Positions 1,253 to 23,100 of a stretch of 64,000 nt of DNA are shown here, piece after piece; position 1 is the first letter of the stretch, and the number at the start of each line of letters is the position of its first letter. Location of the stretch: NCBI GenBank assembly GCA_963706575.1, contig CAVPNL010000004.1:288001-352000 (forward strand), in the 5' to 3' direction. The translations under genes and the position numbers were made by a program. The notes under the pieces were generated by a model, which was given only the letters and a program-made list of their open reading frames with translations, had not been told where the DNA came from and made no database searches. This DNA is from an uncultured delta proteobacterium. Lineage in GTDB: Bacteria; Desulfobacterota; Desulfobacteria; Desulfobacterales; JAHEIW01.

Positions 1253-1295
1253 GATATGAGAGTATCACCAAAACGGGGAACTTGTGATATCATCC
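1253..1295 (+). repeat. GATA/TATC boundary repeat (site 1 plus arm)
   Basis: GAGAGTATCACCAAAACGGGGAACTTGTGATATCATCC, nearly identical to 17918-17955. Confidence 0.75.
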
Positions 1296-1395
1296 CTATT
1301 CTTGATGATATCATAACAATTTTTGAGCTTTATAATTCAGCACAATGATCACGAATGAGAGACTATTGGTTTGAAATGTGTGAGGTTATATTCTG

Positions 1396-1626
1396 TCACT
1401 CAACAATCTCGAGTATGTACCTTTTACGTTTCTTTCCAGCAGCTGCACTTAAAATTGTCCGAATTGCTTGGGCTGTTCTGCCCCGTTTGCCAATGATCTT
1501 TCCCATATCCGGCTTTGCTACCCTTACTTCCAACACCGTGGTGTGGCTACTTCCAATTTCATTGACAGAAACCTCTTCCGGCTGATCAACAAGTGCTTTT
1601 ACAATTTTAGTGATCAGATCCTTCAT
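1396..1626 (-). CDS. khpA: KH-domain RNA-binding protein (UPF0109)
   Basis: 76 aa; IVKALVDQPEEV...DMGKIIGKRGRTAQAIRTIL with KH GxxG loop. Confidence 0.9.
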   Translation of the reverse strand: MKDLITKIVKALVDQPEEVSVNEIGSSHTTVLEVRVAKPDMGKIIGKRGRTAQAIRTILSAAAGKKRKRYILEIVE

Positions 1627-1762
1627 AGCCCAGCCTCCCCATCTGTTATCCGGTATTTATTCAGAATCAAACTATATCGATCCTACCTCTATATGCAATA
1701 TAAAATTACTAAGCACTGCATTAGAGGGGGGCTGGATTCCGACAGGATATAGGCTTATAAAA

Positions 1763-1790
1763 TGAAAGGGGTGACTCCGAAGAGTCACCC
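1763..1790 (-). terminator. Hairpin/terminator upstream of khpA
   Basis: GGGTGACTC-CGAA-GAGTCACCC (UUCG loop on minus strand) followed by T-rich sequence. Confidence 0.6.
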
Positions 1791-2117
1791 TGAATGGTGC
1801 AGAACATTAGCACAACATTAATCGATCCAATTTCAAAAGCACCGATTCCATACTAAAAAAAGTATAGTTTAAATGTCAACCCCATTTTCCGAAATAATCT
1901 AAGTCCATAGGACTCACGGTAACCGTTGTGGTGCCGTATATAGCTCCCGCCTAATGCTATACACAACCTTTGACAACAACTCCGGATTTATGTATCTCTA
2001 CTTAGCGAATTCGACCTCACAAACATTGTTAACCCAAATAGTTTATCAGATATCGGAACATGTATAGAATGCAGTTGTTTAATAGGATATTGTTTACGTG
2101 AAAATATTAGGTGGCTC

Positions 2118-2717
2118 TTGAAAACCAGTAATGGAAAAACAAGCGTACCGATTGTTGGTGAAAACGTACCCAAAAAGAAAACTTATTTTTTGCCGTGGAT
2201 AGGTAAATTTATATTTGCAATATTCGGATGGAGTTTCAAAAATGAATTTCCCAATATTCCCAAGTTTGTGATTATTATTGGGCCGCATACATCCAATTGG
2301 GATTTTGTTTTTGGGATAGCAGCTATGTTTATATTAGGCGCCAAAATTTCATGGATGGGGAAGCAACCACTCTTTCGAAAACCGTTTGGTGGTATTTTTC
2401 GATGGCTTGGTGGAATACCCATAGATCGAAGTTCATCTCATGGTGTAGTTGATACGATGATCAACCAATACAAAAGTATGGACGAATTCATTCTCGCCAT
2501 AGCACCTGAAGGAACACGAAAAAAAGTGGAGAAGTGGAAATCCGGCTTTTATCGTATTGCTACAGGTGCTGATGTTCCGATATTGATGGCGTGTTTTGAT
2601 TATAAGAATAAGATTATCAGCTTTGGTCCATTAATATATCCTTCAGGGAATTTAAATGCTGATATAGAAGATATGCAGTTATTTTTTGAAAATATAAGGG
2701 GGAAGAAATCTCAATAG
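2118..2717 (+). CDS. 1-acyl-sn-glycerol-3-phosphate acyltransferase-family protein
   Basis: PHTSNWD (HxxxxD), GGIPIDR and APEGTR motifs; TTG start. Confidence 0.9.
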   Translation: MKTSNGKTSVPIVGENVPKKKTYFLPWIGKFIFAIFGWSFKNEFPNIPKFVIIIGPHTSNWDFVFGIAAMFILGAKISWMGKQPLFRKPFGGIFRWLGGIPIDRSSSHGVVDTMINQYKSMDEFILAIAPEGTRKKVEKWKSGFYRIATGADVPILMACFDYKNKIISFGPLIYPSGNLNADIEDMQLFFENIRGKKSQ

Positions 2718-2840
2718 AATAAAATGCATAATCGTTACAGGGGACGCTTGTGACGGGTGCTGAATTCAGACCTGAAGGTTCTCTCAGCAAACCCAAGTTT
2801 CTATGATACCTTCAAAGTGACACCGAATGAAACTTTAGGC

Positions 2841-2909
2841 AATTTTACAGATATGAAACGGATATCAGAAGAATTTTCAGGCTTCGAAAAGCTGTTGTTA
2901 GTTGGTATC
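2841..2909 (+). repeat. GATA/TATC boundary repeat (site 2 plus degenerate site 3)
   Basis: AATTTTACAGATA-TGAAACGGA-TATCAGAAGAATTTTCAG...TTCGAAAA...GTTGGTATC. Confidence 0.6.
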
Positions 2910-2996
2910 TTAAAATCTAACGAAAAACTCAGCTTCGCTAATTACCGTATCAATTGCTGTGCTGGGTTAGCCCTTGATTTAAATATGGACCCATCA

Positions 2997-4043: not shown

Positions 4044-4133
4044 ATTTCAGCCTTTCAAAGCATTCCAAGTAATTCTCTAATCAGGTGAGCGCTTACCAAT
4101 ATCGCCACGCATCACAGAATACAGATATATTGA

Positions 4134-4241
4134 GAGACTGTCGAAAAAGTCCCAAAATGGTGATTTTAGTAATTTCGCATGCAATGAAATCAATAATTAA
4201 CAAACACCAATTTTACGGATTTTGGGTTTTTCGACAGTCTC
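4134..4241. mobile_element. 108-bp MITE with IS1182-type ends, inserted in a boundary repeat
   Basis: TIR GAGACTGTCGAAAAA...TTTTTCGACAGTCTC; TGA duplicated on both sides; same end as the IS1182 remnant at 6232-6246. Confidence 0.85.
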
Positions 4242-4249
4242 TGAGAGTA

Positions 4250-4302
4250 TCTTAATGGCTCAGCGACTTGCATACAATGTCCGCTACAATCGCTTGTTAA
4301 GC
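4250..4302 (-). other. Degenerate attC-like site after the racemase gene
   Basis: minus strand GCTTAAC-aagcg-ATTGTAGC-GGAC...GTCGCT-gagcc-ATTAAGA; R'' perfect, L' partly missing, R' G->A. Confidence 0.45.
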
Positions 4303-4347
4303 AATAAATCGATTTTCCTCAGCCGGGGCCGCTCGACCAAACAAGGG

Positions 4348-5436: not shown

Positions 5437-5611
5437 ATCCTCCTCCGATCAGTTTGTTCAACATTAATATTGAGTAGACGTCTTGTTTTTGTATTATTTA
5501 AGGCATCTTAGTAGGCGGCAATATAATATTCCTATATGGAATAAAATGCAGATTTATATTCAGGCGAGAATTTTGATGCCATATTCTTGAAACAGTTTAA
5601 TCGATATTACA

Positions 5612-5692
5612 GATTTATTGAGAATACCTGAAAAATACCTAAACTACAGATATGCCAGAATATCACAACATTTTTAAGACTTCAAAAACCTT
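5612..5692 (+). repeat. GATA/TATC boundary repeat (sites 1 and 2; site 3 split by IS1182, remainder at 6247-6256)
   Basis: ATTGAGAATACCTGAAAAATACC...CAGATATGCCAGAATATCACAAC...AAAAACCTT, closely matching 16096-16180. Confidence 0.85.
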
Positions 5693-6246
5693 CTTGAAAA
5701 CTGATCTTTCATCGAAGATACAAAAGTTGCAATGGTACTGTGATCGGGCCGCTGGTTGCCAGACAGCGCCATAAAGGTCACGTTCTCACAGCAGGCCCTT
5801 TCAATTTGCCGCGAGGATATCAGCCCCCGCGCGTAAGCCAACAATACCACTTTTAACAAAATCTTAGGATCATAGGCACTGCGGCCTGTCTCGTCATTTT
5901 TGTAGTTGCCCTCAAATACCGACATGTCCATGCGCGTCTCAATGAGCATATGGATGGCAAACTCCAAACTGCCGGGCACCAGTTGCTCCTCTAATGAAAC
6001 CGGGATTAAAACCTTTTGGGAATAATCATAACGCTTAAATTTGGCCATTAATTTGTCCACTCCATATTTGCCTGGTTGTTGTATCAGAAACTAATCTATA
6101 CCTAGCAATAGGACTAGACATTGTCAAACGAAAAAATACAAGGATAGCCGATATTTGCGGGATATTGTTTGGAGCTTTGAGTGGGATAAAAAATTATAGA
6201 TCTTATAGAAAAACCACCTTCAATTGATACCTTTTTCGACAGTCTC
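5693..6246 (-). mobile_element. Truncated IS1182-family element (left end plus 5' part of transposase)
   Basis: ORF 5674-6060 MAKFKRYDYSQ...GRSAYDPKILLK...SSRQIE...PDHSTIATF is IS1182/DUF772-like; terminus GAGACTGTCGAAAAAG at 6246. Confidence 0.85.
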
Positions 6247-6390
6247 TGGAGATATCAAAGGTTTTAAAACCGTAATGAAACCCGTGTTACATAGAAGCAG
6301 TTAGCAACGACTTATATCTTACCAATGATTTGATTATATTGATTATTTCAGGCTCGTATGAGTTAACAAATCGGCTTGTTTGGGCATCTT

Positions 6391-7452
6391 CTAAATATCC
6401 AGCAGGCTCTTTTTGATCACGACCTGTTTGAGAATTTCAATGCTGTCGAGAGCTTTACCAGCACCTATAGCTATTGTTGATAATGGATCTTCGGTTATTG
6501 TTATCGGAAGGCCGACTTCCTCTCTGAGAAGTTTGTCCATATTTTTTAAAAGAGCACCACCGCCGGTTAATACAATTCCCCTTTCAGCGATGTCTGCAGC
6601 CAACTCCGGCGGAGTTTGTTCCAAAACCGTTTTCACCGTCTGCACAATGGCATCTATCTGCTCGGAAATTGCTATCCGTATCTCTTCTGAATCAATGGAT
6701 AAAACGTTGGGAATTCCTTTTGTAAGGTCTCTGCCCTTAACTTTTATTGTTTCCAGATTCTGAGGGTCCGGGGATGCATTTCCGATTGTGGTTTTAATTG
6801 TCTCAGCTGTCCGCTCGCCGATCAATAGATTATACTTCCTCCTGATATACTGTATGATTGCAAAATCCATCTTATCACCGGCCACCCTGATGGATCGACT
6901 GTAAACAATTCCTGCCAGAGAAATAACAGCAACCTCTGTAGTGCCGCCGCCGATATCAATTACCATATTGCCTATGGGTTCTGTGAAAGGGAGGTCGGCC
7001 CCAATTGCGGCCGCCATCGGCTCTTCAATCAAAAATACTTCGCGAGCCCCCGCAGCTTCCCCTGCTTCCCTGACAGCGCGCTTTTCAACCTGGGTAATTC
7101 CGGATGGCACGGCGATAACAATTCTCGATCTTACAAATATCCGCCGATTATGCACCCTGCGAATAAAATACCGCAGCATAGCCTCGGTAATTTCAAAATC
7201 AGCAATAACACCGTCAGCTATCGGACGAATGGCTACTATATTTCCGGGTGTCATTCCCAGCATATTTTTCGCTTCAAGACCAACAGCCAAAATGCGATTT
7301 TTTGCCCTCTGGCCCGTTTGAATCGCAACAACTGATGGCTCATTCAATACGATACCCTCGCCTTTCATCCACACGAGGGAATTTGCAGTACCCAGATCAA
7401 TGGCCAGATCATTCGAAAATAAACCCATAACTGCATTAAAGATAGAATTCAT
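6391..7452 (-). CDS. mreB: Rod shape-determining protein MreB (stand-alone paralogue)
   Basis: [22 protein letters not shown] and LTGGGALL motifs. Confidence 0.93.
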
Positions 7453-7492
7453 ATATTCTCATTGCACTTCGAAAGATAAAGATTTGAGCGTA

Positions 7493-7700
7493 TACCAGTT
7501 ACGTGACCGGCAAACCGGTTATGGCGAGAGGGGCCAATTTAATAGCGAAAATTCCTTTTATTGGGATTTAGACAATAAAATCATAGGACCCTATATTTCT
7601 TAAAACGCCTGTTTTACCCCTACAATGGTATCTTTAAGCCTAAATAACGGGCCTTTTTTTATCTCTTTTTGCAAAATATTAAATACTTACTGCGGCCCCC
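7493..7700 (+). mobile_element. Remnant (3' end and right end) of the Y1-transposase element
   Basis: Near-identical to 27462-27660 (YQLRDRQTGYGERGQFNSENSFYWDLD...GCGGCCCC). Confidence 0.85.
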
Positions 7701-7727
7701 TTTTACCCCCTTTTAATTCATTACTAT

Positions 7728-8165: not shown

Positions 8166-8218
8166 TTATCAGCACGAATGAGGATTAGAATAAGGATTTC
8201 ATTCCTCTAAGGTAATTA

Positions 8219-8527
8219 TCAATCAGTCTGACTGGCAGTCATCGGCGCATAAATATTGTAGTGGGTTTCTTCGCCAGTTAAAGCTTCAATTTTACTCTCG
8301 ATATGGGTTCTTTCTTTATTGTGTTTCCATCTATTCCAGTCATCTACAGTTTCCCACAAACTGATTACCAAACAATCGCCGGGATGTTCTAAATCACATA
8401 AAGTCTTACCGGAAATATATCCGGGTTGGTGCAGTGCAAGTGCTCGCATCTGCAAGATTAAAGGAACCAATTTTTTTGCATGACCGCCTTGCTTTATCTT
8501 CCTTTTAATTAAGACTTCGACCGCCAT
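8219..8527 (-). CDS. Antibiotic biosynthesis monooxygenase (ABM)-family protein
   Basis: QPGYISGKTL...LVISLWETVDDWNRW; GGAGG RBS. Confidence 0.8.
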   Translation of the reverse strand: MAVEVLIKRKIKQGGHAKKLVPLILQMRALALHQPGYISGKTLCDLEHPGDCLVISLWETVDDWNRWKHNKERTHIESKIEALTGEETHYNIYAPMTASQTD

Positions 8528-8652
8528 ATTACCCTCCAAATTTTGAGTTGGGCATTTAATATTGCGAAGTGGGTTAAATGATCAGTTTTGATAATCAATA
8601 GTTCAAGATATTTACCATTGCACCAGTGTGACGTCAACTTTTGATGAGAATA

Positions 8653-9250
8653 TCACAATTTTGGCAATTTTAAAGATATCAGCGGTGCTAAACAAGATGC
8701 ACGACATTTCACAGAAGGGGCGGTTTATTATTCGTTGGACTTGACCGGCGTCACTTTGCCCACAGCATCGAGCCAGCGGATTAGTAGGGATGGTGAAGAA
8801 CGATACCAGTTATCTTTGAGGTCATGGGCTGAGGGTGGAGCAACACGACACCAGGCACCATCAGAATACCGGATTAAGGAAACGCCGTCTAAGACCATCC
8901 GAACACTGCCGTCACCATATTTAGAAACTCGTCGTGCCATTTTCACGCTCCTGTTTAGGGGGGATGATTGAGGATACATAAGGGACTTACATTTTAACTT
9001 AATCAGTTTTTTTTCAAATTACAAGGCTTGGTTGGGCGGTCGCCGGTTAATCCTTGCGGACTGGGGTTCTTTTTTTTACCTCACCCAGCCACTTGGCCCA
9101 ATATCAAATAAAAAACCCTATCAGAAGTAACTGACAGGGCGATAAGTTCTTTGACAACCTGCTGGGACTGAGTCGCTTATGGATCAGTCCCAATTCCCAT
9201 TCTTGGTTGTGATATAAAAGCAATATCACAAGAATTTCGGAGATTCAAAA
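8653..9250 (+). repeat. About 600-bp module duplicated at 63181-63778
   Basis: Colinear high similarity; both copies begin and end inside GATA/TATC sites. Confidence 0.92.
8728..8940 (-). CDS. 70-aa basic hypothetical protein (copy 1)
   Basis: AGGAG RBS and ATG; 7 of 8 differences from copy 2 are synonymous. Confidence 0.75.
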   Translation of the reverse strand: MARRVSKYGDGSVRMVLDGVSLIRYSDGAWCRVAPPSAHDLKDNWYRSSPSLLIRWLDAVGKVTPVKSNE

Positions 9251-9575
9251 CTACAGGTTGGAGTAACATGCAATTTTAGAATGTAAAGATATTTTGGTTT
9301 GCCAGATGATATCCACAACTATCAGCGTTTGTTACGTATAGATAGCAGTCTACAATTCAGCCAAAGTTTGGATTCCAACCATTAATATAAAACTTTGAAA
9401 AGATGCTTAAATAGCAGATTATTACAATTGTGATAAAAAATGAATATCGCAAGTTTTTCAGAGTTTCAAAACCTTTGATATGTTGGATATCAACGGTTTT
9501 GTAGAGCGTTTATTCATGTGATTTTTGCAGATAGTTGAAAAGGTTTTTGCCCTCTGATATGTTTACAGTATCTGT
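9207..9575 (+). repeat. Gene-free cluster of GATA-N9-TATC sites
   Basis: TTGTGATA-TAAAAGCAA-TATCACAA (9207), TTGTGATA-AAAAATGAA-TATCGCAA (9428), GATATGTTGGATATC (9477), GATA-TGTTTACAG-TATC (9556). Confidence 0.75.
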
Positions 9576-11241: not shown

Positions 11242-11991
11242 CTGTATTTTTTTATTATTTGGCTATAGCTGGTTCGGTTATATTTAATATTCGCTGGACT
11301 CTATGGCTGCTTGGCCGCCGGTTTCTTCGATAGGTGCGTTTCGAAGAGACAGTATTTTTGATGATCAGGAACGAAAAGAGCGATTAAAAAGAAAACTTCT
11401 GGCAGCATAGAGTTTAGAAGTTATGAAACCTTGATGAATTTCTTTTTGCTAAGGTTATTTGGCAAATTAATGTTTTTCATCTAAATACTTTAACATTAAT
11501 ATTGCAAAAACACCGATAAGTACCATGGCAAAATTAACAATAAGTACCATCTTTAGTTCCTTTTACTCATGGACAAATGAATTAGAGATGCTATTATCCA
11601 TTTAAATATTGCAAAACTCATTCCATTTTTTATTGGAAATTTTTTGTAAATAATCAGGGATGTTAAGAATGGCAGGGTAGGATTCTAAAACGGAGATGTG
11701 TACAATATTATACGGAGCGTAAGATATTTTATAATTAAATCAACTTAGTGATTTATAGATACACGAAATACATTTTTTTACATTTCATGCGCCAGTCCTT
11801 AATTTTTGGCCATGCAAAAGAGAATAAATTAGCGTGCCTGATGCGAAAATTTGGAGGGTCCGGAATTTTGTTAGGTGTGGTCACGAAATATCCAATTTGG
11901 GATTTTGTAGATTGGGTTAAATAAGCTGAAATTTCGCAATAGGAAAACTTGAGATATCACAACAGAAAACCAAATATCATCCAGGTTGCTA

Positions 11992-12047
11992 TTAATTGAG
12001 AATACCTGAAAAATACCAGAAGTGCAGATATCGTAATCTGATATCAC
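11992..12047 (+). repeat. GATA/TATC boundary repeat next to the PilZ stop codon
   Basis: ATTGAGAATACCTGAAAAATACCAGAAGTGCAGATATC...GATATCAC. Confidence 0.8.
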
Positions 12048-12053
12048 AGGTTT

Positions 12054-12353
12054 TTAAATTAACTTTGCTCCGTAGCCGAGTTGATAAGATGATCCCTGAA
12101 TTTCTATACACCACATGATTTTGACATCAAAATACTGATGGGATTTACTTATAAATTGCTGTGGTGGTTTCTTAATTGATATGGCTATCTCATGTCCTTG
12201 TAAAAGGTCTTCGTTAGTTTCGAAATACAATCCCTCCTTACTAAAGTTGTACATAGTGCCCTTGTAAAAAAAATCAGCTGGACTCGTATTATGCAGAATA
12301 GGAGTTTCACATGGAATCCGCTCAGATTTTCTGCGTTCAATGCCAGTATTCAT
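12054..12353 (-). CDS. PilZ-domain protein
   Basis: RRKSER (RxxxR) and NFSKEG (NxSxxG); GGAGGAG RBS. Confidence 0.85.
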   Translation of the reverse strand: MNTGIERRKSERIPCETPILHNTSPADFFYKGTMYNFSKEGLYFETNEDLLQGHEIAISIKKPPQQFISKSHQYFDVKIMWCIEIQGSSYQLGYGAKLI

Positions 12354-12446
12354 TTGTTCATCTCCTCCGCTTGATAAGGTCGCCGATAATTTAATCTTAG
12401 AAAACATGCGATTACTTGCAAGTATCCTACGTTGGCATCAACCTGT

Positions 12447-12498
12447 GATACATTGATAATATCACCAACACAGGAAATTTCAGATATCAAGCGATATC
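12447..12498 (+). repeat. GATA/TATC boundary repeat (sites 1 and 2)
   Basis: GATA-CATTGATAA-TATC-19nt-GATA-TCAAGCGA-TATC. Confidence 0.75.
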
Positions 12499-12671
12499 CT
12501 AAAAACAAAACCCCACCTCTCAATTTGAGAAATGGGGTTCTGGAAATAAAAACATAATACCCTCCGGTAAAGGGTTATTATTTATTTTTTTTCGTACTTT
12601 TGAAGGGCTTCATGCATTCAGCGTCTTATAGCCTCTAAGCGTGTATTATTTCGGAAAGTTCTAGATAGTAC

Positions 12672-13176: not shown

Positions 13177-13231
13177 TTGTGATATAAAACGTGTATCACA
13201 ACTTTTTCAGAGATTCAAAAGTGCTGATATG
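13177..13231 (+). repeat. GATA/TATC boundary repeat (site 2 plus site 3 split by the intron, continuing at 15088-15100)
   Basis: TTGTGATA-TAAAACGTG-TATCACAA-...-GATATG|intron|TTGGAGAAATC. Confidence 0.85.
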
Positions 13232-15087
13232 GTTAAGTGGCGCAGGGGGATTTCACCCCTACGCTCTCCAAGATCCGTACGTGACAGTCTCCCGTCATAC
13301 GGCTCCTACTGTCCAGCCGTCGGCCGAAAGCCAAATTCCCAAGTCGCAATTAGTCTGGGTTCACGGCGTGCAATGCGACCTAACCAATGGGTCGCCTTGA
13401 GCCAGTGGCCTCTCAGCCTTTTGTATTTCCGCATCGCCCAACGAACCAAGGCATACTGAAGCTGACGGAGTATGGGACGCAATGCTGATTTGTAATATTT
13501 GCCATAATAGTTTAACCAACCCCTAATCACAGGGTTGATTCGACTGGCAATATCCTCTAATGAAGATGAGCTCCATAAATGCAACTTCCAGCCCCTTATC
13601 GTAGCACTCATCGCTTTGATCGCTGATTTGCTCACCGCTGGTGTAAAACCCACAAAATAGTTGCGACCTTTACAGTCGCGCGGTCGAAAGCAGTAACCAA
13701 GAAAATCAAAACTCTCATGCTTATAGTTTCCGGGGCGTCTTACATCCTTACAATAGACAATTTTCGTCTTCTCCGGATGCAATTGCAACTTGCAGCGTGC
13801 CAGCCGTCTTTCAATGACCTTCAGCATGACCTGCGCCTGAGGTTCTGTACGACAGTGGACAATAATATCATCCGCATATCTTGCAAATGGTGTACTCGGA
13901 TAATTCACCCGCATCCACTCATCAAACGCGTGGTGAAGAAAAATATTGGCCAGCAGGGGGCTTATCACTCCCCCTTGGGGTGTGCCCTTTTCTGTTTCGA
14001 TGAGACTACCGTCCTCCGATTGTGCCGGAGCTTTCAGCCATCTCTCGATGTAGAGCAGCATCCACTTGCTGTCCGTATGCTTCTTCACCGCGTACAACAT
14101 CAGCTCATGGTCAATGTTATCGAAGAACCCCTGTATGTCCAGATCGATCACCCAGTTGTACCACCAGCACCTTTTGCGAACCACGCCAACTGCATCCAGT
14201 GCTGATCTGCCTGTTATGTAACCATAAGAATCCGGGTCAAAAATCGGCTCTACATCGGGCCCCAGACACATCTTGACCACCATCTGCGCCACGCGATCCG
14301 ATACGGCTGGTATACCCAACCTTCTGGATCCCCCATCGCTTTTGGGTATGTCTACCGTGCGCACCGGCGGAGGAAAATAACTGCCCGAGGACATCCGATT
14401 CCAGATCTTATAAAGGTTGTCCTTGAGATCAACCTCAAAATCTTTGATCGACTGCCCATCGACTCCCGCAGCACCTTTGTTCGCCTTTACCCGACGATAG
14501 GCTTCCCAAACCACCTGCTTGGAAATACTAAACGACTTTGTTTTAGTAATAGGCTCCTCCCATCTCTGGTTGACCGCATCGCTAAAACCAGACAGCACAA
14601 CTCCTTCGCTCCACCTGCATTACACAGACTTCCTCACTACTACGAGTTGTTCCGCCCCCGTGTCCCGCATCGGTACTCTCACGCTTGTGGGTCCTCCACT
14701 TGCGTTTCTCCCTTAACATCGGAACGACAGGTTCCCACGTTCCGCACAAAAGCCTGGATCAAGTTCATGCCATCTCTATGCCGGACGCCGCCCAGACAAT
14801 AAACAGGCTCCCTCTGGGCTTTTCCTGCAGACCTCCAAGTATCCGCAGTTTTGACGACATCTCAGATATTTCGACACCTCATCAATGGTTCGCTTGTGCT
14901 CATCTCCTTGATCCATACCTGACACAGTCTTGGCCATGCCTTGCCCTTAACGCTCACCACAACGGCTCTTTACCGATGCAGCTTAAGGTGGTTTGAAGCC
15001 TGCTCCTGCAAGCCGACTCCGAAGGGCCCTCCTTCATCTTCCGTGCAGTTACGCACACTTTATATTAAAAGTGCGCTCGTGGCGCAC
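13232..15087 (-). mobile_element. Group II intron, RmInt1-like (bacterial class D)
   Basis: 5' GTGCG at 15087; domain V GAGCCGTATGACGGGAGACTGTCACGTACGGATC; domain VI ending AAC at 13232; EBS1 loop TTGGAG at 14833-14838. Confidence 0.93.
13306..14550 (-). CDS. ltrA: Group II intron reverse transcriptase/maturase, no endonuclease domain
   Basis: LYKIWNRMSSGSYFPPPVR, PQGGVISPLLAN, RYADD, NPVIRGWLNYY; RBS GGGAGGAG is followed by ATT rather than ATG at 14550. Confidence 0.92.
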   Translation of the reverse strand: MTKTKSFSISKQVVWEAYRRVKANKGAAGVDGQSIKDFEVDLKDNLYKIWNRMSSGSYFPPPVRTVDIPKSDGGSRRLGIPAVSDRVAQMVVKMCLGPDVEPIFDPDSYGYITGRSALDAVGVVRKRCWWYNWVIDLDIQGFFDNIDHELMLYAVKKHTDSKWMLLYIERWLKAPAQSEDGSLIETEKGTPQGGVISPLLANIFLHHAFDEWMRVNYPSTPFARYADDIIVHCRTEPQAQVMLKVIERRLARCKLQLHPEKTKIVYCKDVRRPGNYKHESFDFLGYCFRPRDCKGRNYFVGFTPAVSKSAIKAMSATIRGWKLHLWSSSSLEDIASRINPVIRGWLNYYGKYYKSALRPILRQLQYALVRWAMRKYKRLRGHWLKATHWLGRIARREPRLIATWEFGFRPTAGQ

Positions 15088-15140
15088 TTGGAGAAATCAC
15101 AAGTTTCTGCTTTCCGAATAAAAGCCAAAATGGAAATAGC

Positions 15141-15173
15141 AAAAGGCAGGGCCTTGACGACCCTGCCTCTTTT
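15141..15173. terminator. Bidirectional intrinsic terminator
   Basis: AAAAGGCAGGG-CCTTGACGA-CCCTGCCTCTTTT. Confidence 0.6.
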
Positions 15174-15192
15174 CTGATTTCTTAGTTATGGT

Positions 15193-15717
15193 TCACTGTT
15201 TTGGTTCGATTATTTTCCAAGTTCCCGTTCCTCTACTGATAGCCTGGTGTGTTCCTTCTGCGGCAGGTCTCATAGGCCTTCTAGTATATTCTATGCCTCC
15301 CTCAATTCCTTTAAATTTTCCAGTCCCTCCTACAATTTTACCCTTTCCACTAACTGGGTTGGGTCCAAGCTGGACTCCCTCTTCCGTAAGTTCCATGACT
15401 ACTTTATCACCATCTTTGTCTATATTAAATATATACCCCCTTAGGCTCCCTACACCATTTTCGAAATACATAACGCCTATATTATGTATTGACATACCGT
15501 GGAATGGACCCGTGTTACTATCACTGACTCTTACTCCAAAATTTTCATATGTGAATGCAAAATTTTCTTTATCGAGGGGGTAAACTTTATGAGTACCTCC
15601 ATAAGTGACAGTGCCAGAAATGGTGCCTTCTTTTGCCATCTCTGCCTTCGAGAAAGGCACTAAAGCGAGCAAGAAAACAAGCGCCAGTATTGATGCTATA
15701 ATTATTCTCCTCATCAT
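15193..15717 (-). CDS. Secreted hypothetical protein (beta-rich)
   Basis: AGGAGG RBS; signal peptide; GGTGKFKGIEG motif. Confidence 0.8.
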   Translation of the reverse strand: MMRRIIIASILALVFLLALVPFSKAEMAKEGTISGTVTYGGTHKVYPLDKENFAFTYENFGVRVSDSNTGPFHGMSIHNIGVMYFENGVGSLRGYIFNIDKDGDKVVMELTEEGVQLGPNPVSGKGKIVGGTGKFKGIEGGIEYTRRPMRPAAEGTHQAISRGTGTWKIIEPKQ

Positions 15718-16095
15718 TTACCTCCTTTTTGTGTAGGTGTCGCGTAGGGTTACGTTCTTTTCAAATGGTCATTTTGTCTCCTAACAGAACAGCTACATCT
15801 GTTAGGAGAAAGATTGGCACATTTTGAGTGGTATCTCCATTTCACTTTTCCCGAATATTTGGGTTAAAGTTCGTGGGAACCGGAGTCTATATGAGTGGCG
15901 AAAGCATATTAGAATTTGCAGAGTCGCTCAGCAGGCGAATGTGAAAGGGAAAGAAAACTGATAATGAAAATGAATTTTAGATAGGAAATTGAACTTCAGG
16001 AAGCACGCAAATAACAGCCTTATATTTGATACCAGATCTAAATGTCAAGCGAAATGCATTTATTTGTCAGATTTCACAAGCTGATGTCAGGTTTT

Positions 16096-16195
16096 GATAT
16101 ATTGAGAATACCTGAAAAATACCGAAAGTACAGATATGCCAAAATATCACAACTTTTTTATGTCCCTAAAAACCTTTGATAAGTTGGAGAGTACC
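16096..16195 (+). repeat. Complete three-site GATA/TATC boundary repeat
   Basis: GATA-TATTGAGAA-TACC-20-GATA-TGCCAAAA-TATC-29-GATA-AGTTGGAGAG-TACC. Confidence 0.88.
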
Positions 16196-16207
16196 AGATA
16201 TATGGAT

Positions 16208-16264
16208 TCTTAACGGCTGAATGGAGCGGCGCTGTCAAGCGTTCGCTCCCATGATGTGTTAGGA
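16208..16264 (-). other. attC-like integron recombination site (57 bp)
   Basis: minus strand TCCTAAC-5nt-ATGGGAGC...GCTCCAT-6nt-GTTAAGA; extra base in L'' and canonical spacers. Confidence 0.65.
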
Positions 16265-16759
16265 TTTATTATATTTGACCAATGTAAAAGGCTATCCACG
16301 TTATTTTAAGATGACTTACTACCGTTCCGTGAACTTCCCCGATCCGAAGCTCATGAGCTGACACTGCTGTCTGGCCATCTCAATAATCTCCTTTTTCGTC
16401 ATGTCGCCACCAATGGGCTGTTAGGTGTAGTGAGTGAATGGGGTTTTTAATGCTGCCGGCCCTATGGATTTTACGCAACAGGCACCTTATCCAAACCTTA
16501 GTGAGCGAATTCTTTTAATGAGATCCCCCTGAGACCTGGGCGCCGGTCCTGCCGGGTGATTGAATGTTGGACGAGCCAGTTTTACATGCAAATACGAATA
16601 AGCATATTAATACGACTAAAATTATTTTTTTCACGGCCTTTCTCCTATTTTATTTTTTGTCTTTGTATAAAATTGAGCATCAAAAAGAAAACAACTAACT
16701 ATAAATATTTGGCTAAAGACCTTCGTTGTCAATTGTTATTTCAGGTGGTGATATATTGA

Positions 16760-16867
16760 GAGACTGTCGGAAAACCTAAAATGTGTGTTTTTAGTGCCTC
16801 TAAGTACTTGATATTACTATACCCGAATTTTGGAAAATGGTTGAAATTAGACTTTTTCGACAGTCTC
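16760..16867. mobile_element. 108-bp MITE with IS1182-type ends, inserted in the boundary repeat 16750-16902
   Basis: GAGACTGTCGGAAAA...TTTTTCGACAGTCTC; TGA duplication; same length as 4134-4241. Confidence 0.85.
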
Positions 16868-16905
16868 TGAGAATATCACTAAATCGGGCAACTTGTGATA
16901 TCATT

Positions 16906-17829
16906 TCAATTTTTTCCGGTTTTATTCCAATGCTCTATCAAAAGAGGAACGATTTTTTCCGGCTGATCTTCTTGGACAAAATGCCCAGCCTCTGAAATTT
17001 TATTGAAATCAACATTAGCACCTCTTTTAGTTAATCTTGCGTGCATATCTTTCCCAATCCATAGTGGAGCAAAACGATCATTTTCTCCCCAAACCAGCAT
17101 TATACTAACTTGATAAGAGTTGGTAGGCCTTTGCAAAAATTGCGTTTTATTTTCAGGCAAAATCAAGGACAAGTGTGGGATTTGTTGCAGGGCTAAAGAT
17201 TTTGCCATATTTTTATATAGTTTGATCCAATACCGGGTTGATTCGCTGTCACAGAACATTTCAAAATAACTTTTTAGAACTTTTGGGTCTAATCTGCTCG
17301 AATCATTAAACGATCGTATCATTGCAAATTTGAAGAACTGTTTGGGGAACCATTTAAACGCTATTTTTGGCAGCAGTGGAATGTTAAGAAAAATTAAGTG
17401 CCACATACCTGACAAATCGGTCTTCCAAAAGTTCGTATTCATAACAGTGGCGGATATAAGTGATTGAGGTTTAAATCTTGCGGTTTGCAGAGCCAATGCA
17501 CCGCCCCAATCATGTCCGATAAAATGGTATGATGGAAGTTGAAGGGTTTCAACAATGGTTTGGTGGTCTTCATATAGCCTGCTAATAGAAGCCTCTCCTG
17601 ACTTTGAACTCTCTCCAAAACCTCTTAAATCATAAGTTATAAGCCGAAAGCTTTTTGTAACGGCATCCGGCAAACTTGATATCAAATGGTCCCAACAATG
17701 ATGATTTTCGGGAAATCCGTGAACAAATACCAACGGCATTGCTTCATTTTTAGTGTCCCAAAGAGCAATTGTTACTCCATCATCCATGGTGATGTATTTC
17801 CTAAAAAAATTAACTTTACTCAACATCAT
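16906..17829 (-). CDS. Alpha/beta hydrolase (epoxide hydrolase/haloalkane dehalogenase-like)
   Basis: HGFPE, DLRGFGES, GHDWGG, AGHFVQED. Confidence 0.9.
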   Translation of the reverse strand: MMLSKVNFFRKYITMDDGVTIALWDTKNEAMPLVFVHGFPENHHCWDHLISSLPDAVTKSFRLITYDLRGFGESSKSGEASISRLYEDHQTIVETLQLPSYHFIGHDWGGALALQTARFKPQSLISATVMNTNFWKTDLSGMWHLIFLNIPLLPKIAFKWFPKQFFKFAMIRSFNDSSRLDPKVLKSYFEMFCDSESTRYWIKLYKNMAKSLALQQIPHLSLILPENKTQFLQRPTNSYQVSIMLVWGENDRFAPLWIGKDMHARLTKRGANVDFNKISEAGHFVQEDQPEKIVPLLIEHWNKTGKN

Positions 17830-17907
17830 AAACTCCGAAGGTTATAAACAAGAGTGTAATGCAAGTCTTTGGATAATCGCCAGATAAACAATTGTCAGCC
17901 AATTACT

Positions 17908-17955
17908 GATATATATTGAGAGTATCACCAAAACAAGGAACTTGTGATATTATCC
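17908..17955 (+). repeat. GATA/TATC boundary repeat
   Basis: ATATATTGAGAGTATCACCAAAACAAGGAACTTGTGATATTATCC. Confidence 0.8.
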
Positions 17956-17986
17956 CCATTTTCTGAGAACAGTATCTCAATAATAG

Positions 17987-18154
17987 TTAACTTTTTTTTG
18001 AAGTTACCGTCTGAAAGGATGAAATTTGTTGCTTCAATTTTTTGGCTTTACACTTTGGGCAACTGTATTTTTTCTTTTCATATTCGGCAATAGAAAGGAC
18101 TATGCTAAAAGACTTTTTACATTTTTCACAGAAGAACTCATATGTGGGCATCAT
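17987..18154 (-). CDS. FmdB-family zinc-ribbon protein (55 aa, below the ORF-track cutoff)
   Basis: AAGGAGG RBS; MMPTYEFFCEKCKKSF...CPKCKAKKLKQQISSF. Confidence 0.88.
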   Translation of the reverse strand: MMPTYEFFCEKCKKSFSIVLSIAEYEKKKYSCPKCKAKKLKQQISSFQTVTSKKS

Positions 18155-18363
18155 ACACCTCCTTTTGTTAGTGTTTTAAGCAGATGTACTCAGTATGTGG
18201 ATTATTTGAAGGAGCGCAAAAATCAGATGAGAACCAGATTCGATTCCGTAGTTTGAGAACCGCTCCAGACCAGTTGGAATAGCAGGATCAGGTATAGGTT
18301 GTTCGAATTTATATCCAAATCGATGGGCTTTTTCAATCAAAATTCAGGATTCTGGAAACTGGC

Positions 18364-18462
18364 GATATATTGAGAGAAACCCAAATATCGTAATTTTACA
18401 GATATGCTAAAATATCACAACTTCTCGAGGCCGGTCAATTTTGCCGATATGTTGGAGATATT
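18364..18462 (+). repeat. Complete three-site GATA/TATC boundary repeat
   Basis: GATA-TATTGAGAG-AAAC-20-GATA-TGCTAAAA-TATC-29-GATA-TGTTGGAGA-TATT. Confidence 0.88.
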
Positions 18463-18502
18463 CGCAGCTGCTCGGATAGACCGCGCCACTTTTTGGAGAC
18501 GT

Positions 18503-19441
18503 TCATTTTTTATTAAGTATTTCTCGAAAAGTTTGCTCCCGAAACATCGAATCGGCCAAACGCACATTGGGCATATGCAAACAATTATTTAACACCTTAG
18601 GACCATGAATGGATAACAATTCAGGTTTTACATTCACATGTGGCATACCTCCTTGCGCGTCGTGCAAACTTTCCCACTCAACCATAACTAAATATTCTGC
18701 AGGTACCGTATAGCCCTCCCAGACATCTGCAGTGCGTTGCAGTTTGCTACCTGAACTATTCTTAAGTTTTTCCAGCATGGATTCAACAGTGGCATGTCCA
18801 CTTCCTAGAGTTGAAAGGCCAATCCGCTTGAGGATCTGGCAGCCGACCATACCCGTGGATTCTCTAAGTTTTCCCATAGTTGCAGTTTCGCCGGCTTCAA
18901 ATTCCTCTTCTTGGCCTGGACGGACTTTGTGCAAAGCCATAACGGTGACAGTTTGTCCCGAATCCACTGCGTAACCATCAGATTCCCCAGCTGCACTCCT
19001 CCTTAACCATTGATTCATTGAGATAAGCTTGGGCAAATCACTGTAAACAACTCGATAGATGGGTTCTTCTGGGCCTTCTAATAATACATCACCGCATTTC
19101 GCACACGTATCGACAACTACGTCCTCAAATGTTTCATGAAAATTCTCATGCGCCTCCCACGATTCCCAGTAGGTAAACTGATCAATCCAAATATGAGAAA
19201 GTCGATCGCCCATGTCTGAGCTCGCGCCCCATCGCATACCCATGGGGCATGCGCCGATTTGCTTCATTAAATCGAAGCCTTTAAACCCGGGTGTTAGCGC
19301 TGTAGCAAGACACATTTTAGAACTGGCCTGCTTCATCATTCTCATTAAGTCGGGATCGTTGTTAACTAAAACGCGGTTAATTGCAACATACAGTGGTGAC
19401 TTAGGTTCAGCATCAAATAATTGTTTTACATTTGCTTTCAT
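18503..19441 (-). CDS. sor: Sulfur oxygenase reductase (SOR) homologue
   Basis: YVAIN, KMCLATALTPGF, YWESWEAHENFH, CAKC, GPEEPIY, C-terminal TFREILN; colinear with Acidianus SOR as I recall it. Confidence 0.85.
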   Translation of the reverse strand: MKANVKQLFDAEPKSPLYVAINRVLVNNDPDLMRMMKQASSKMCLATALTPGFKGFDLMKQIGACPMGMRWGASSDMGDRLSHIWIDQFTYWESWEAHENFHETFEDVVVDTCAKCGDVLLEGPEEPIYRVVYSDLPKLISMNQWLRRSAAGESDGYAVDSGQTVTVMALHKVRPGQEEEFEAGETATMGKLRESTGMVGCQILKRIGLSTLGSGHATVESMLEKLKNSSGSKLQRTADVWEGYTVPAEYLVMVEWESLHDAQGGMPHVNVKPELLSIHGPKVLNNCLHMPNVRLADSMFREQTFREILNKK

Positions 19442-19609
19442 AATTTTAACCCACCTTTCCAATAAACAATAAGGTAACGAAATAATTTATCTCTTTTACG
19501 GATATAGATATGATCCCAAGCAAAAAACGTTTCTGGGATGCGATATACTTATTAAGTGAGTTTTTCTTAATTTAGTATATTTTGTATAAAAAATATTTGG
19601 GATCTAACT

Positions 19610-19879
19610 TTATTTCAGGATACCATATTTCTTCAAATTGGATTTTATATAGGGCCAATGCAAGACAATATGTACTGCGATCACAACTATGAATATCAAT
19701 GCAGCCCATTCATGAAGGGCAATAAAAAAATGTCTTAAAGAAACCGAAAAACTTCCCCTGGCTTCATATCCCCTTGGCAATACAAGCCAATTTAGCAAGC
19801 CAGTGCTGAATAAAACAATAAAGAGGATAAAGGATATTACGTTGACTATCCAAAGCTTTGAAGATCTTCCATTAGACAT
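19610..19879 (-). CDS. DUF4405-like small membrane protein (putative haem b binding)
   Basis: TGLL...LHEWAAL...HIVLHWPYI. Confidence 0.75.
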   Translation of the reverse strand: MSNGRSSKLWIVNVISFILFIVLFSTGLLNWLVLPRGYEARGSFSVSLRHFFIALHEWAALIFIVVIAVHIVLHWPYIKSNLKKYGILK

Positions 19880-20027
19880 TCGCTTCTTTCAATTAATTGC
19901 ATTATTTATAGAGGTTGATTTAGTCCGGAAAGTTCACATTCTCATGAAAAATTTATCTTTTGTTAGGTTGCTTAGTCTGGAATAAATACAGAATAATTGC
20001 CAGATACCAAAAAAATCATCCGATGGC

Positions 20028-20070
20028 GATATATTGAGAGTACATGCATTTTGGCAAAATTACAGATATG
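20028..20070 (+). repeat. GATA/TATC boundary repeat
   Basis: GATA-TATTGAGAG-TACA-20-GATATG. Confidence 0.75.
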
Positions 20071-20090
20071 CACTCTAACGCCATATCTCC

Positions 20091-20399
20091 TTAATTAAAA
20101 ATTAGAATGGCAAAGCCGATTCCGAATCCTATTAATGGAACAATATATTTCAGATATTTCTCTTTAACTCCAGTTTTTCCGCTCAACAGCCTCCCTCTAT
20201 GGTTGTGTATTCTTACCAGGATACTAAGGAGATAAAAGCCAACGCAACAAATTGCATAAATGGCAATATTAGCTGCTTCAGGAAATCTATCAAAATATAT
20301 AAACAAAAATGAAAGCAATAAACCCGAAGTAAAAGAAATAATAAGCCAACTAAACTCATTATTCCAATTCATACGATCGGTTTTTTCGTCATAGCCCAC
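20091..20399 (-). CDS. Hypothetical three-TM membrane protein
   Basis: Three hydrophobic segments; start uncertain. Confidence 0.65.
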   Translation of the reverse strand: MGYDEKTDRMNWNNEFSWLIISFTSGLLLSFLFIYFDRFPEAANIAIYAICCVGFYLLSILVRIHNHRGRLLSGKTGVKEKYLKYIVPLIGFGIGFAILIFN

Positions 20400-20487
20400 T
20401 GAATATCCACCTTAGATGTCGCCATACATGATAAATGGCAGTTCACACATGCTTATTCAGACATATAACAGCCATACACCAGGTTGT

Positions 20488-20878
20488 GATACATTGAGAG
20501 AAACACAAATATCGCAATTTTACAGATACCATATGGATATCTGCACCGTATCGCATTTTTAAATCTGCTGTCAAATTGAAGTCCCGAAAAATGAGGCTTT
20601 GAGACAATAAAAAGGGCAAATCCATAGGATCGGATTCACCCTTTTGAGTTGTGATTTAAAGCGAATATCGCAGGAATTTTCAGATTTGATATCTACCGTT
20701 TTGTTAGAGTAATCGCAGCTATTTAAAGGCAAATTTTATTACCAAAAAATAGCAGACACCTAAAAGATGGCTCTCTTGTGATTAGTTTACAATATCTGAA
20801 AATATGAGGATGCAAGATACTTGGTTTTTATTGTTGATATCTGTAATTGTGGCGCATCTGCGATATGTTGGTACCACA
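20488..20878 (+). repeat. Gene-free cluster of GATA/TATC sites
   Basis: GATA-CATTGAGAG-AAAC-20-GATA-CCATATGGA-TATC (20488); TTGTGATT-N9-TATCGCAG (20649); GATATGTTGGTACC (20862). Confidence 0.7.
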
Positions 20879-20934
20879 ACTGTTAGAAATGCTGGCAAGC
20901 GACTGTTGTATATAGCAGTATTTCATTAAGTTAA

Positions 20935-22815
20935 TTAATCAGGCAGACCCGCCTTGCGGAGTGCCCCTAACCAGCGGTTTTTTAAATCAGCATCCTTAAA
21001 TGGATTTACTTTTCCAGCATCCTGCTCTACGGAAAAATTTGGTTTAATCCGCAAAACTTCGGCAGCAGCTTCACGTGCTTTGGTCTCATTGCCCGACATC
21101 TGATATGCATATGTTAGTCCCCAATAGGCAAAGAGATAATCGGGATTACGTTCTATAGCCCTATTCCACAACGGTATCGCTTTTTCATACTGTTCAGAAA
21201 AGGCATAGGCAAAAGCCAGGTTGTTCAGATACATGAGAGGTGAGACAGGATTGAGGCGGATGGCCTTTTCAAGATATAAAATGGCTTCGTCATAGCGACC
21301 GGTGAACCTTAAGACCATCCCCATAAAAAAATGATCTACTGCAGAGTTGGGACTTAATTCGACGGCCTTTTGCGCCTCGATGATGGCCTTTTCATGTTCG
21401 TTTCTCAACAGAAATACCATGCCAAGCAATCGATGCGTGACGGTATCTTGACCGGACAAATCGATGGCCTTCAGAGTCAACTGTTCCGCTGTTTTAATCG
21501 ATTTGGCGCGATCTTTTGTCCTATTGAACCAGACATCGTCCAGATGTGTATGTGCCAGAAGAGTATAGGCACCCCCATATTCGGGATCAAGGGTAATAGC
21601 TTCTTGCGCCAACCTTCGTGCCTCAATTGTATCTGCTGTTGTTCTACGGTACAAGTGTTCATTCCCTTTTAGAAACTTCTCATAGGCTTTAAGATTGGTC
21701 GTTTTTATCGAGGAAAACCGGCCCCAGTCTGCCTCTGAAAGTTCCACTTGCATTGCAGCCATGATTTTCATCGCGATTTCATCCTGCAGGGCAAAGATAT
21801 CCGTCACCTTCCGGTCGTAATTTTCCGCCCATAAATGGTGCCCTGTTGTTGCATCAATCAGCTGAACCGTGATACGCACGCGATCATCAAATTGCTGCAC
21901 ACTACCTTCGAGCACATACCGAACTGCCAGTTCTTCTGCAATTTGCTGAATTTTTACAGGTTTTCCTTTGTAAGCAAACGTGGAGTTGCGGGCAATTACA
22001 AGAATATAAGGAACCTTTGAAAGTGACGTGATAATTTGTTCGGTGATTCCGTCGCTAAAATACTCCTGCTCGGAATCGCCGCTCAAGTTGTCAAACGGAA
22101 GTACGGCAATAGAGGGCTTATCCGGCAATGGATACGCCATCTTCTCCACAGAGGCAGGCTCTATTCGCTTAGATTGTTCGATGTATAAATACCATCCTGC
22201 TAATCCGATGAGAATAACCACAGCAGCGGCAACGGCCACCCACCTTTTTGTTTTCCTCTTTTCACCAATGATCTTGCCGACGGCTTCCGGTTCCATTAAA
22301 ACTTTATAGACACGCACCGGCGCTGCTATGTTTTTAACGCTGTGTTCACCTAAATATTCATAACCCAGTTCAAGTTTAGTTTTTAGCTGGTCGTAGGCGG
22401 TCCCTGAAATGCAAATGCCGCCTCCTTCTGCCATGCCTTCCAGGCGGGCAGCTATATTGACCCCGTCGCCGTAAATTCTGTTATCTTCCTCAACAATATC
22501 ACCCAGATTAACGCCGATTCGGAATAACATCCGTCGGTTCTCCGGCAAATCAGCATTTCGTTCACTCATCTCTTTTTGGGTTTCAACAGCACACCTGACC
22601 GCATCCACGACACTGGAAAATTCTGCCATAAGATTATCACCGGTCATATCAACTACTCGTCCACTGTGTTGCTCAATTAGAGTGGACATCGAATTACGGT
22701 AGGTGTTTAAGGTTTGGATTGTCGTTTCCTCATTATCTTCCATCAAGCGGCTGTAACCGACAACATCGGCACTGAGTATGGCGGCGAGTTTACGTTTAAA
22801 ACCTTCTCCTGCCAT
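20935..22815 (-). CDS. Class III adenylate/guanylate cyclase with TM, TolB-like and TPR domains
   Basis: RKLAAILSADVVGYSRLM, GDGVNIAARLE, SIAVLPFDNLS, TPR repeats. Confidence 0.92.
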   Translation of the reverse strand: MAGEGFKRKLAAILSADVVGYSRLMEDNEETTIQTLNTYRNSMSTLIEQHSGRVVDMTGDNLMAEFSSVVDAVRCAVETQKEMSERNADLPENRRMLFRIGVNLGDIVEEDNRIYGDGVNIAARLEGMAEGGGICISGTAYDQLKTKLELGYEYLGEHSVKNIAAPVRVYKVLMEPEAVGKIIGEKRKTKRWVAVAAAVVILIGLAGWYLYIEQSKRIEPASVEKMAYPLPDKPSIAVLPFDNLSGDSEQEYFSDGITEQIITSLSKVPYILVIARNSTFAYKGKPVKIQQIAEELAVRYVLEGSVQQFDDRVRITVQLIDATTGHHLWAENYDRKVTDIFALQDEIAMKIMAAMQVELSEADWGRFSSIKTTNLKAYEKFLKGNEHLYRRTTADTIEARRLAQEAITLDPEYGGAYTLLAHTHLDDVWFNRTKDRAKSIKTAEQLTLKAIDLSGQDTVTHRLLGMVFLLRNEHEKAIIEAQKAVELSPNSAVDHFFMGMVLRFTGRYDEAILYLEKAIRLNPVSPLMYLNNLAFAYAFSEQYEKAIPLWNRAIERNPDYLFAYWGLTYAYQMSGNETKAREAAAEVLRIKPNFSVEQDAGKVNPFKDADLKNRWLGALRKAGLPD

Positions 22816-23100
22816 AACGGCACCTCCCTTTTAGGGTTTCAAACAGAGGAACTCAGTATGTGGGCTATTCAAAGGGGCGCAAAAATCAGATGAGAAATCG
22901 GATTGGATTCAGTTGGTGAAGCATCGCTTCAGGACTGTTGGAAAAAGAGAATCAGGGTTTGGTTAGATGTATTTATATCCAAATCGATGGGTTTTAGTCA
23001 ATAAAATAAGGATGTTTGTAGCTGGTGATATATTCGGTACATGGGGATCGGACCGTTCTATTATATTGATATTTATGAAAAAGAGGTCCAGTCATACGTG

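Follow-up and report, generated by a model that had tools for sequence, protein, structure and literature searches.

Which process stacks the unrelated accessory genes at the beginning of a 64,000-nucleotide stretch from an uncultured delta proteobacterium of the Desulfobacterales (GenBank assembly GCA_963706575.1, contig CAVPNL010000004.1, positions 288,001 to 352,000; the whole stretch is called the window, and coordinates without a prefix refer to it)? A sequence-only reading had noticed a co-oriented repeat family at 20 positions and proposed that the repeats, which it set apart from attC, dif and CRISPR repeats, are recombination sites of an integron-like system, which stacks modules carrying their own promoters. 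All 20 positions carry the described motif or a part thereof, and breakpoints in the sites, their absence from the core block and a linked tyrosine recombinase lend support to the proposal. We suggest that the repeats serve a small tyrosine-recombinase element as its recombination sites, and that exchange between like cores shuffles linkers with their cargo in an integron-like way; we consider this the probable explanation. Judged from sequence, the system is real, occurs widely in one bacterial family, has a candidate enzyme linked to it and is, apparently, undescribed.

Anatomy of the sites

Each of the three sites of the full repeat has inverted arms of about 13 bp, ending in GATAY, around a spacer of 6-9 bp. 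The repeat is built from two half-types. The A half-type consists of core 1 (ATTGAGA) and the left arm of the inner palindrome, that is, of site 1 and the left arm of site 2. The B half-type consists of the right arm of site 2 and core 3 (GTTGGAG), which is site 3. The 82-bp tripartite form is the fusion of A and B. The spacing reported by the sequence-only reading holds, with 36-37 nt from site 1 to site 2 (start to start) and 81-85 nt from site 1 to site 3 in the fused forms. The tripartite full form exists as well, but it is intact only at 16096 and 18364; the copies at 5612, 13177, 4124 and 16750 are split by an insertion sequence (IS), a group II intron or an inverted-repeat transposable element of miniature size (MITE), and most remaining copies are A-only or B-only. 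Likewise, the conserved boxes reduce to the two fixed 7-bp cores, whereas the spacer of site 2 varies.

A two-box position weight matrix was seeded on the window and then iterated on the genome, so that the genome counts are partly circular: above 20 bits the 5.67-Mb genome (25 contigs) holds 40 A and 38 B sites, and the reversed genome, used as control, holds 0 and 0. Cores, orientation and gaps were followed in 311 sites of 19 genomes (the source genome whole, 80 chosen regions of the others). ATTGAGA is the core in 121 of 155 A sites and GTTGGAG in 95 of 156 B sites. With spacer-blind scoring ATTGAGA still falls on A (116/212) and GTTGGAG on B (98/222), and no swap of the two between A and B is seen among the 25 commonest words listed in these scans. 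The site-2 spacer takes 33 different forms (6, 7 or 9 nt) across 45 fused units. Neighbouring sites less than 6 kb apart are co-oriented in 198 of 199 cases. The A-to-B gaps (n=68) measure 81-85 bp in 41 cases, 146-147 bp in 5 and 209-210 bp in 10, and the B-to-A gaps are gene-sized. The surroundings of the sites are AT-rich (median GC 41.5% vs 48.5%). Also as first reported, the family is absent from the core block: none of the 26 window matches of at least 10 bits lies within 36-62.3 kb, where one bare GATA-N9-TATC stands at 36980. Rfam, searched for known structured RNAs or CRISPR repeats, gave no match on the sites.

The same arms also surround further core types, CTTGCMA, GTCTGAC, GTTTACA and GTAGATG (window 12410 and loci L129, L146-L148, L163-L184 and L026); in places they are strung together every 37 bp, as if they were adapters between subfamilies. 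Locus L032 of the relative G023 is a rare exception to co-orientation: a recombinase element is followed there by A sites on the opposite strand, which suggests an inversion.

A tyrosine-recombinase gene between core 1 and core 3

The sequence-only reading saw no recombinase in the window and recommended looking for one co-located with site arrays. A Pfam scan of the 51 open reading frames (ORFs) of the window indeed finds none, but candidates are encoded elsewhere in the genome. A gene for a 278-amino-acid (aa) tyrosine recombinase, first met among 25 tyrosine-recombinase matches listed for a single-contig relative, lies between core 1 and core 3 and is physically tied to the sites. The autonomous element is about 1.05-1.15 kb long and runs in the order core 1, inner palindrome, 278-aa Xer-like gene, terminator, second inner palindrome and core 3. 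Its core 1 is formed by 13-bp inverted GATAY arms around ATTGAGA and its core 3 by such arms around GTTGGAG. Of 97 recombinase loci, 85 could be evaluated for core 1, which lies 115-135 nt upstream in 17 of them, and 80 for core 3, which lies 80-180 nt downstream in 21; both flank the gene in 8 loci. For homologues of at least 75% identity the figures are 9/9 for core 1 upstream and 7/11 evaluable loci for core 3 downstream. Distant subfamilies of the recombinase have different cores, CTTGCMA on the left and GTCTGAC on the right.

The ORF of the element contains only PF00589 and a SAM-like domain according to Pfam. The catalytic R, K, H-x-x-R, H and Y are conserved in an alignment of 67 homologues, and the predicted structure (model predicted local distance difference test score 78) has XerA as its nearest fold and also matches Tn1549 Int and Cre; residue set and fold both place the protein among the tyrosine recombinases. 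Its family comprises 4040 clusters at 1e-50, and plasmid and phage collections gave no match to the recombinase element at 1e-30. Near codon 18 the gene has an A8/A9 run, on which it would usually need a slip: among 79 loci whose start is visible, the frame is lost there in 55 and kept in 23. The single copy in the source genome has the A9 run, and no stop follows it.

The sites descend from the ends of this element. Because the segment 20488-20714 aligns to both element ends and to the terminator hairpin, with the left end shorter by 10 bp (one turn), the 210-bp A-to-B units are gene-free derivatives of it; this copy, on the plus strand like every site given below unless stated otherwise, consists of left end, hairpin and right end with the gene deleted. 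The 82-bp tripartite form is probably a gene-free derivative too. It appears that most copies of the element lack the gene and persist as 82-, 147- or 210-bp linkers or as linkers bearing cargo.

This descent bears on two ideas of the sequence-only reading. It had counted against itself the case that the motif is the decayed end of a known IS or MITE family. This case is half true: the sites do form the ends of a small element and of the MITE-like copies derived from it, but the element belongs to a tyrosine recombinase and matched no described family; judged from the Pfam content of its ORF, it is not an element with a DDE, HUH or DEDD transposase and matching ends. The analogy drawn with Tn3 res is weak. 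Tn3-family res comprises three spaced palindromes over about 110 bp, like the sites here; unlike in res, both outer palindromes here are breakpoints, and the three subsites are two merged element ends. A serine resolvase was rejected as the enzyme, with no match to PF00239 in the source genome (92% complete).

Both site types occur in 24 of 24 genomes of the same family, and A sites occur in 2 of 16 genomes outside it, as scanned with models of the sequence alone. In an order-level sample B sites are present in 21 of 151 genomes. The 278-aa gene is found in 14 of 41 relatives, in 34 of the 151 order genomes and, at a stricter cut-off, in 19 of 301 phylum genomes. Within the order sample it is present in 11 of 21 genomes with B sites vs 23 of 130 without, where related genomes are not independent. 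One recombinase has a homologue whose source gives it the label Desulfobacterales.

Modules end within the sites

Flanks are exchanged within the sites. Among 14 same-type site pairs whose outside flank is common at at least 85%, the likeness breaks at core 1 in 4, at core 3 in 3 and at site 2 in 3; two pairs have an inserted IS or intron in common and two continue. The ends of common cargo thus fall within sites, as a breakpoint check proposed with the sequence-only reading had anticipated. Site 2 as the sole crossover, in the manner of a lambda-like attP, was rejected, since most breakpoints are at cores 1 and 3.

Modules run from like core to like core within and between genomes. A 372-bp module from core 1 to the next core 1 recurs within the source genome at 98.7%, and a 799-bp module from core 3 to core 3 is common to different species at 86%. 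The 605-bp unit from core 1 to core 3 stands at 8652-9254 and 63180-63782 in copies that are 94% identical and have different flanks. The sulfur oxygenase reductase (SOR) cassette matches a copy in another genus at 97.6%, with the homology beginning at core 3 of the 18364 site; its right end is hidden by an assembly gap. The SOR gene (18503-19462, minus strand) stands in a probable sulfate reducer, and its likeness to the copy of the other genus points to recent transfer.

Arrays are lineage-specific. An 11.6-kb array lies behind a nitrilase gene in the source genome; it is absent, without any site, from 5 of 5 relatives, which at this locus have the same core genes on both sides or the next operon (one contig stops before the far side). 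The first site of an array is B in 8 of 9 cases and the last is A in 7 of 12. In public sequencing runs three listed contigs end or diverge at the sites 4124, 13231 and 17914; joints in these runs at 88% likeness may stem from other organisms and were excluded as proof.

Cargo and promoter-leaders

Cargo genes lie on the strand opposite to the sites. That sites stand just past the stop codon of opposite-strand genes, first noted in the window, is general: in the loci of the relatives the right-hand neighbouring ORF is on the opposite strand at 77 of 88 A sites and 92 of 102 B sites. A promoter-leader of about 200 bp, with sigma-70 -35 and -10 boxes 17 nt apart and about 30 nt from the core, has 40 matches across relatives. 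It precedes unrelated cargo, namely cyclase-TPR (tetratricopeptide repeat), zinc-ribbon, dehydrogenase and other genes. In the window it is present at 18155-18363 and 22816-23026 (minus strand) and includes a 150-nt leader with 0 Rfam matches. The promoter-leader could hide a regulatory RNA or mark the route by which cassettes are made.

The first of these copies belongs to the unit 17910..18363, in which an A end is followed by an FmdB-type zinc-ribbon gene (17987-18154, minus strand) and the promoter-leader (about 18155-18363, minus strand); the A end with this gene has three additional copies in the genome at 90-95%. The second belongs to the cyclase-TPR cassette (20935-22815), where the minus-strand feature 22816..23040 ends at a core 1 without spacer (23027).

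Elements inserted in the cores

Three kinds of elements sit in the cores. For the group II intron family, 9 of 9 true starts are in core 1, core 3 or their arms; these were retained from 37 rows of a regular-expression search, most others being chance matches within genes. In the window the intron (13232-15087, minus strand, with a reverse transcriptase/maturase gene at 13306-14598) splits core 3 of the B end 13177..15105 at G|TTGGAG, and an intron-free allele of position 13231 was found in a public contig. This intron family inserts at three precise positions, namely the top-strand arm of core 3, the bottom strand of core 3 and the bottom-strand arm of core 1. Of 34 IS1182-like ends, 32 abut a core. 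The IS1182-like element and its 108-bp MITE target cores with a 3-bp repeat at 4134-4241, 16760-16867 and 5693-6246. At 4124..4255 the MITE splits core 1, with the 3-bp target repeat, and at 16750..16901 it splits an A end, behind which a minus-strand hydrolase gene lies. At 5612..6256 an IS1182 remnant, with a transposase fragment at 5674-6060 and a right terminal inverted repeat ending at 6246, has displaced the core 3 of a fused A-B unit.

Two-recombinase elements (360 and 312 aa) have inverted ends of their own and are placed in core 3 with a 7-bp GTTGGAG repeat; a sister pair occupies core 1, where the repeat is ATTGAGA. Their protein family comprises 6291 protein clusters. Two near-identical intact elements of 2.1 kb, both in core 3, are present at G000 C1:71-2039 and C12:208366-210334. 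Fragments of other two-recombinase subfamilies lie at G000 C18:89283-89489 and C12:228005-228388, one of them beside a B site. We suggest that the introns, the IS1182-like element and the two-recombinase elements are parasites, which would use the cores as safe targets. Similar targeting is described in the available parts of two sources, for integron sites by introns (PMC3001079) and for pdif sites by ISs (PMC10132070).

Proposed mechanism

In tyrosine-recombinase chemistry, homology of the 6-8-bp overlap guides the choice of partner. We suggest that a single recombinase binds all GATAY arms, and that the differing 7-bp spacers restrict exchange to core 1 with core 1 and core 3 with core 3. 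Recombination between like cores would cut out circles of linker plus cargo and add them again head to tail, while two crossovers would swap single linkers or cargo genes. The variable inner site may serve as an accessory site and, less strictly than the cores, as a third point of crossover; it would probably come into play at the first insertion of an array into the chromosome, since arrays tend to begin with B and finish with A. The cargo genes, facing the opposite way, would bring their own promoter, and the slip run would hold the level of the enzyme low.

Several observations weigh against this mechanism. The gene is present in only 9 of 24 same-family genomes although the sites are in 24 of 24, and no match to the 278-aa recombinase or to the pair came from the genomes G004 and G007, which are 97% complete and have about 30 sites each. 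Over all 97 recombinase loci core 1 and core 3 reach only the 17/85 and 21/80 given above, and in the copy of the source genome (C18:107.7 kb, 63% to the query) core 1 stands at an unusual distance and a good B end is missing. The breakpoint pairs were chosen at sites, are few and come in part from one genome. A search of 279 cores yielded 0 pairs of filled and empty alleles; no circle-type B-core-A junction passed the scan, with one zero-distance B/A overlap in the site-gap data. The search of public reads for circular modules and empty sites, recommended with the sequence-only reading, found no circle: four runs gave pieces of relatives only, with no circle, excision product or clean filled/empty pair, and the best 20 runs contain only 19-38% of the words of 15100-23100. 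Finally, the model leaves the origin of new cassettes unexplained.

Other explanations

The main alternative takes the A-to-B unit for a selfish element, an IS-like tyrosine-recombinase transposon with its MITEs, whose cargo moves as a by-product or through another enzyme. It would excise by joining its own ends, with a one-strand exchange in the shared TTG, and insert into GATAY-N7-RTATC junctions. The many gene-free derivatives, the IS-typical slip run with its 55 of 79 out-of-frame loci and units standing alone in the genome speak for it, as do a hybrid, empty-looking core ATTGGAG with host-type arms on both sides (L119:8526) and an ATTGTAG ahead of a 99.7% copy of cargo that in the window follows a B end. 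We nevertheless consider it rather unlikely: the strict co-orientation with gene-sized gaps, the modules from core 1 to core 1 and from core 3 to core 3, and the prevailing order of the arrays, B first and A last, which is opposite to that of a composite transposon, all speak against it. The missing filled/empty pairs count against it too, and the site-rich G004 and G007 without a match to the gene are as awkward for it as for shuffling by the 278-aa enzyme. That the two-recombinase elements or the host XerC/XerD catalyse the shuffling, with the 278-aa gene as a passenger, is improbable. The pair does sit exactly in core 3 with the GTTGGAG repeat in the source genome and in relatives, its sister sits in core 1, and among 16 genomes outside the family A sites occur in just 2, the same 2 that have the pair. 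However, its own inverted ends are unlike the GATAY arms and it also inserts at cores without an inner site. Only 4 of the 24 family genomes contain it, in the complete genome G023 the sites and the single gene are accompanied by no more than a fragment of a pair, and the terminator and spacing of the sites derive from the single-gene element. The pair as the master enzyme was demoted once the 278-aa gene was found between the cores.

Two further explanations are each very improbable. The sites might be single-strand hairpins that resemble attC, though divergent, and serve an integron integrase whose gene lies elsewhere, as in attC-site clusters that lack an integron-integrase (CALINs). Co-oriented arrays, cargo opposite to the recombinase gene and group II introns in the cores agree with this, and we take the G|TT position in the core to be reminiscent of attC. 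Yet complete sites show no better folding than their shuffled versions (z -0.4 to -1.7), and folding is confined to local palindromes (z -2.6, -3.7); the cargo has its own promoters; and against an integron-integrase cut-off of 265 bits (TIGR02249) the 278-aa enzyme scores 44 and the paired recombinases 75 and 113. A transcription-factor site regulating accessory genes would account for the palindromic arms, for an ATA-N9-TAT pattern that presumably fits the LysR T-N11-A rule and for the distance of about 30 nt that separates the sites of one cassette class from a conserved sigma-70 promoter. It is largely refuted by the fixed asymmetric cores, the one-way orientation, the absence from core DNA, the flanks exchanged within sites and the descent from element ends.

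Comparison with known systems

Integrons and Acinetobacter dif modules are the main described routes by which single genes are stacked and reshuffled. In the available part of PMC4889954 integrons and CALINs resemble the present system in the tyrosine recombinase, the one-way arrays of unrelated single genes, the recombinase gene opposite the cargo, the many arrays without a recombinase gene nearby and the introns and ISs that target the sites. Compared with that account, the enzyme here (278 aa) resembles XerA and scores far below the IntI cut-off, its gene lies within a junction and not beside attI, the sites have the look of double-strand cores and use two fixed spacers, cargo is often equipped with a promoter of its own, and the arrays are scattered and unanchored. 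Co-oriented sites do separate single genes here; neither an IntI-type integrase nor attI and a cassette promoter (Pc) beside an integrase with mostly promoterless cassettes was found, the gene standing between cores within arrays.

The pdif modules of Acinetobacter, as presented in part of PMC13141974, also come in two alternating kinds, are predicted to need matching spacers for exchange, are excised as module pairs between like sites, undergo single swaps by two crossovers and have sites targeted by ISs. The like-to-like modules and core breakpoints observed here would fit such matching of spacers. The same part describes pdif as 28-bp XerC/XerD sites of alternating orientation, on plasmids and served by host enzymes, whereas the sites here point one way, have symmetric GATAY arms of the same kind and an inner accessory palindrome, and enclose a dedicated gene between their cores. 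IS26 translocatable units, following the portion of PMC4894685 at hand, likewise add an element with adjacent cargo beside an existing copy, which gives head-to-tail arrays; they use a DDE transposase and inverted repeats, unlike the tyrosine recombinase and core sites here. RIT, Tn554, SE and GInt are small units moved by tyrosine recombinases, and SE and Tn554 have unequal 6-7-bp spacers at their two ends, according to sections of PMC10214605, PMC3414803 and PMC8138268. These sections give them two to four proteins; here one 278-aa ORF with a slip site lies between the ends, and gene-free linkers are abundant. In the defining tests that were run, the system departs from integrons, pdif modules, RIT/Tn554/SE/GInt, res and known IS types. 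In the open-access literature we found no description of such a system.

We see about an even chance that the Desulfobacterales have here a second, integron-independent platform of gene capture. In it, one small tyrosine recombinase regulated by slippage would exchange cassettes naturally through pairs of heterospecific 7-bp cores. Several orthogonal sets of cores (ATTGAGA/GTTGGAG, CTTGCMA/GTCTGAC and others) would be connected through short adapters, and standard promoter-leaders would allow captured genes to be expressed at any landing place. If true, this third design would run on a minimal enzyme of its own and on short double-strand sites, and integron finders would miss it. It would account for the hypervariable islands seen in abundant sediment sulfate-reducer relatives, which have dozens of sites per genome, and the orthogonal cores would make a natural cassette-exchange tool.

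Remaining sites and neighbouring genes

A degenerate A end (1253..1296) is recognised in the sequence as a shortened core 1 with the left half of the inner site, and an inner site 2 is followed by the degenerate core 3 of a B end (2850..2910). The first copy of the 605-bp A-to-B unit (8643..9270) contains a small ORF without Pfam family (8728-8979, minus strand) and is followed by a B end of 32 bits (9428..9493). At 11990..12091 an A end of 34 bits, a full inner site and a decayed core 3 precede a minus-strand PilZ gene. The second core type, CTTGCAA, stands 37 nt before an A end of 38 bits (12410..12500). The intact tripartite sites are 16096..16194, a fused A-B of 82 bp core to core, and 18364..18462, which adjoins the SOR cassette. 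A further A end of 38 bits lies at 20028..20069. Behind the nitrilase gene, the second array starts with a B end (62390..62460), after whose core 3 a 7-bp stretch is probably a remnant of a two-recombinase element end. The second copy of the 605-bp unit (63171..63800) terminates in a 38-bit B end, and the array continues past the window to about C4:362,100.

The accessory region also contains two c-di-GMP-I riboswitches (1041-1115 and 23823-23897). Two genes of IS200/RAYT (REP-associated tyrosine transposase)-like tyrosine transposases (23930-27670 and 7493-7708) score just below the RAYT cut-off and have long flanking repeats; the same flank also precedes a second mreB-like gene (6391-7452). 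The segment 28383-35446 encodes a 1660-aa YD/NHL/PKD/PASTA repeat protein, with a YD fragment downstream.

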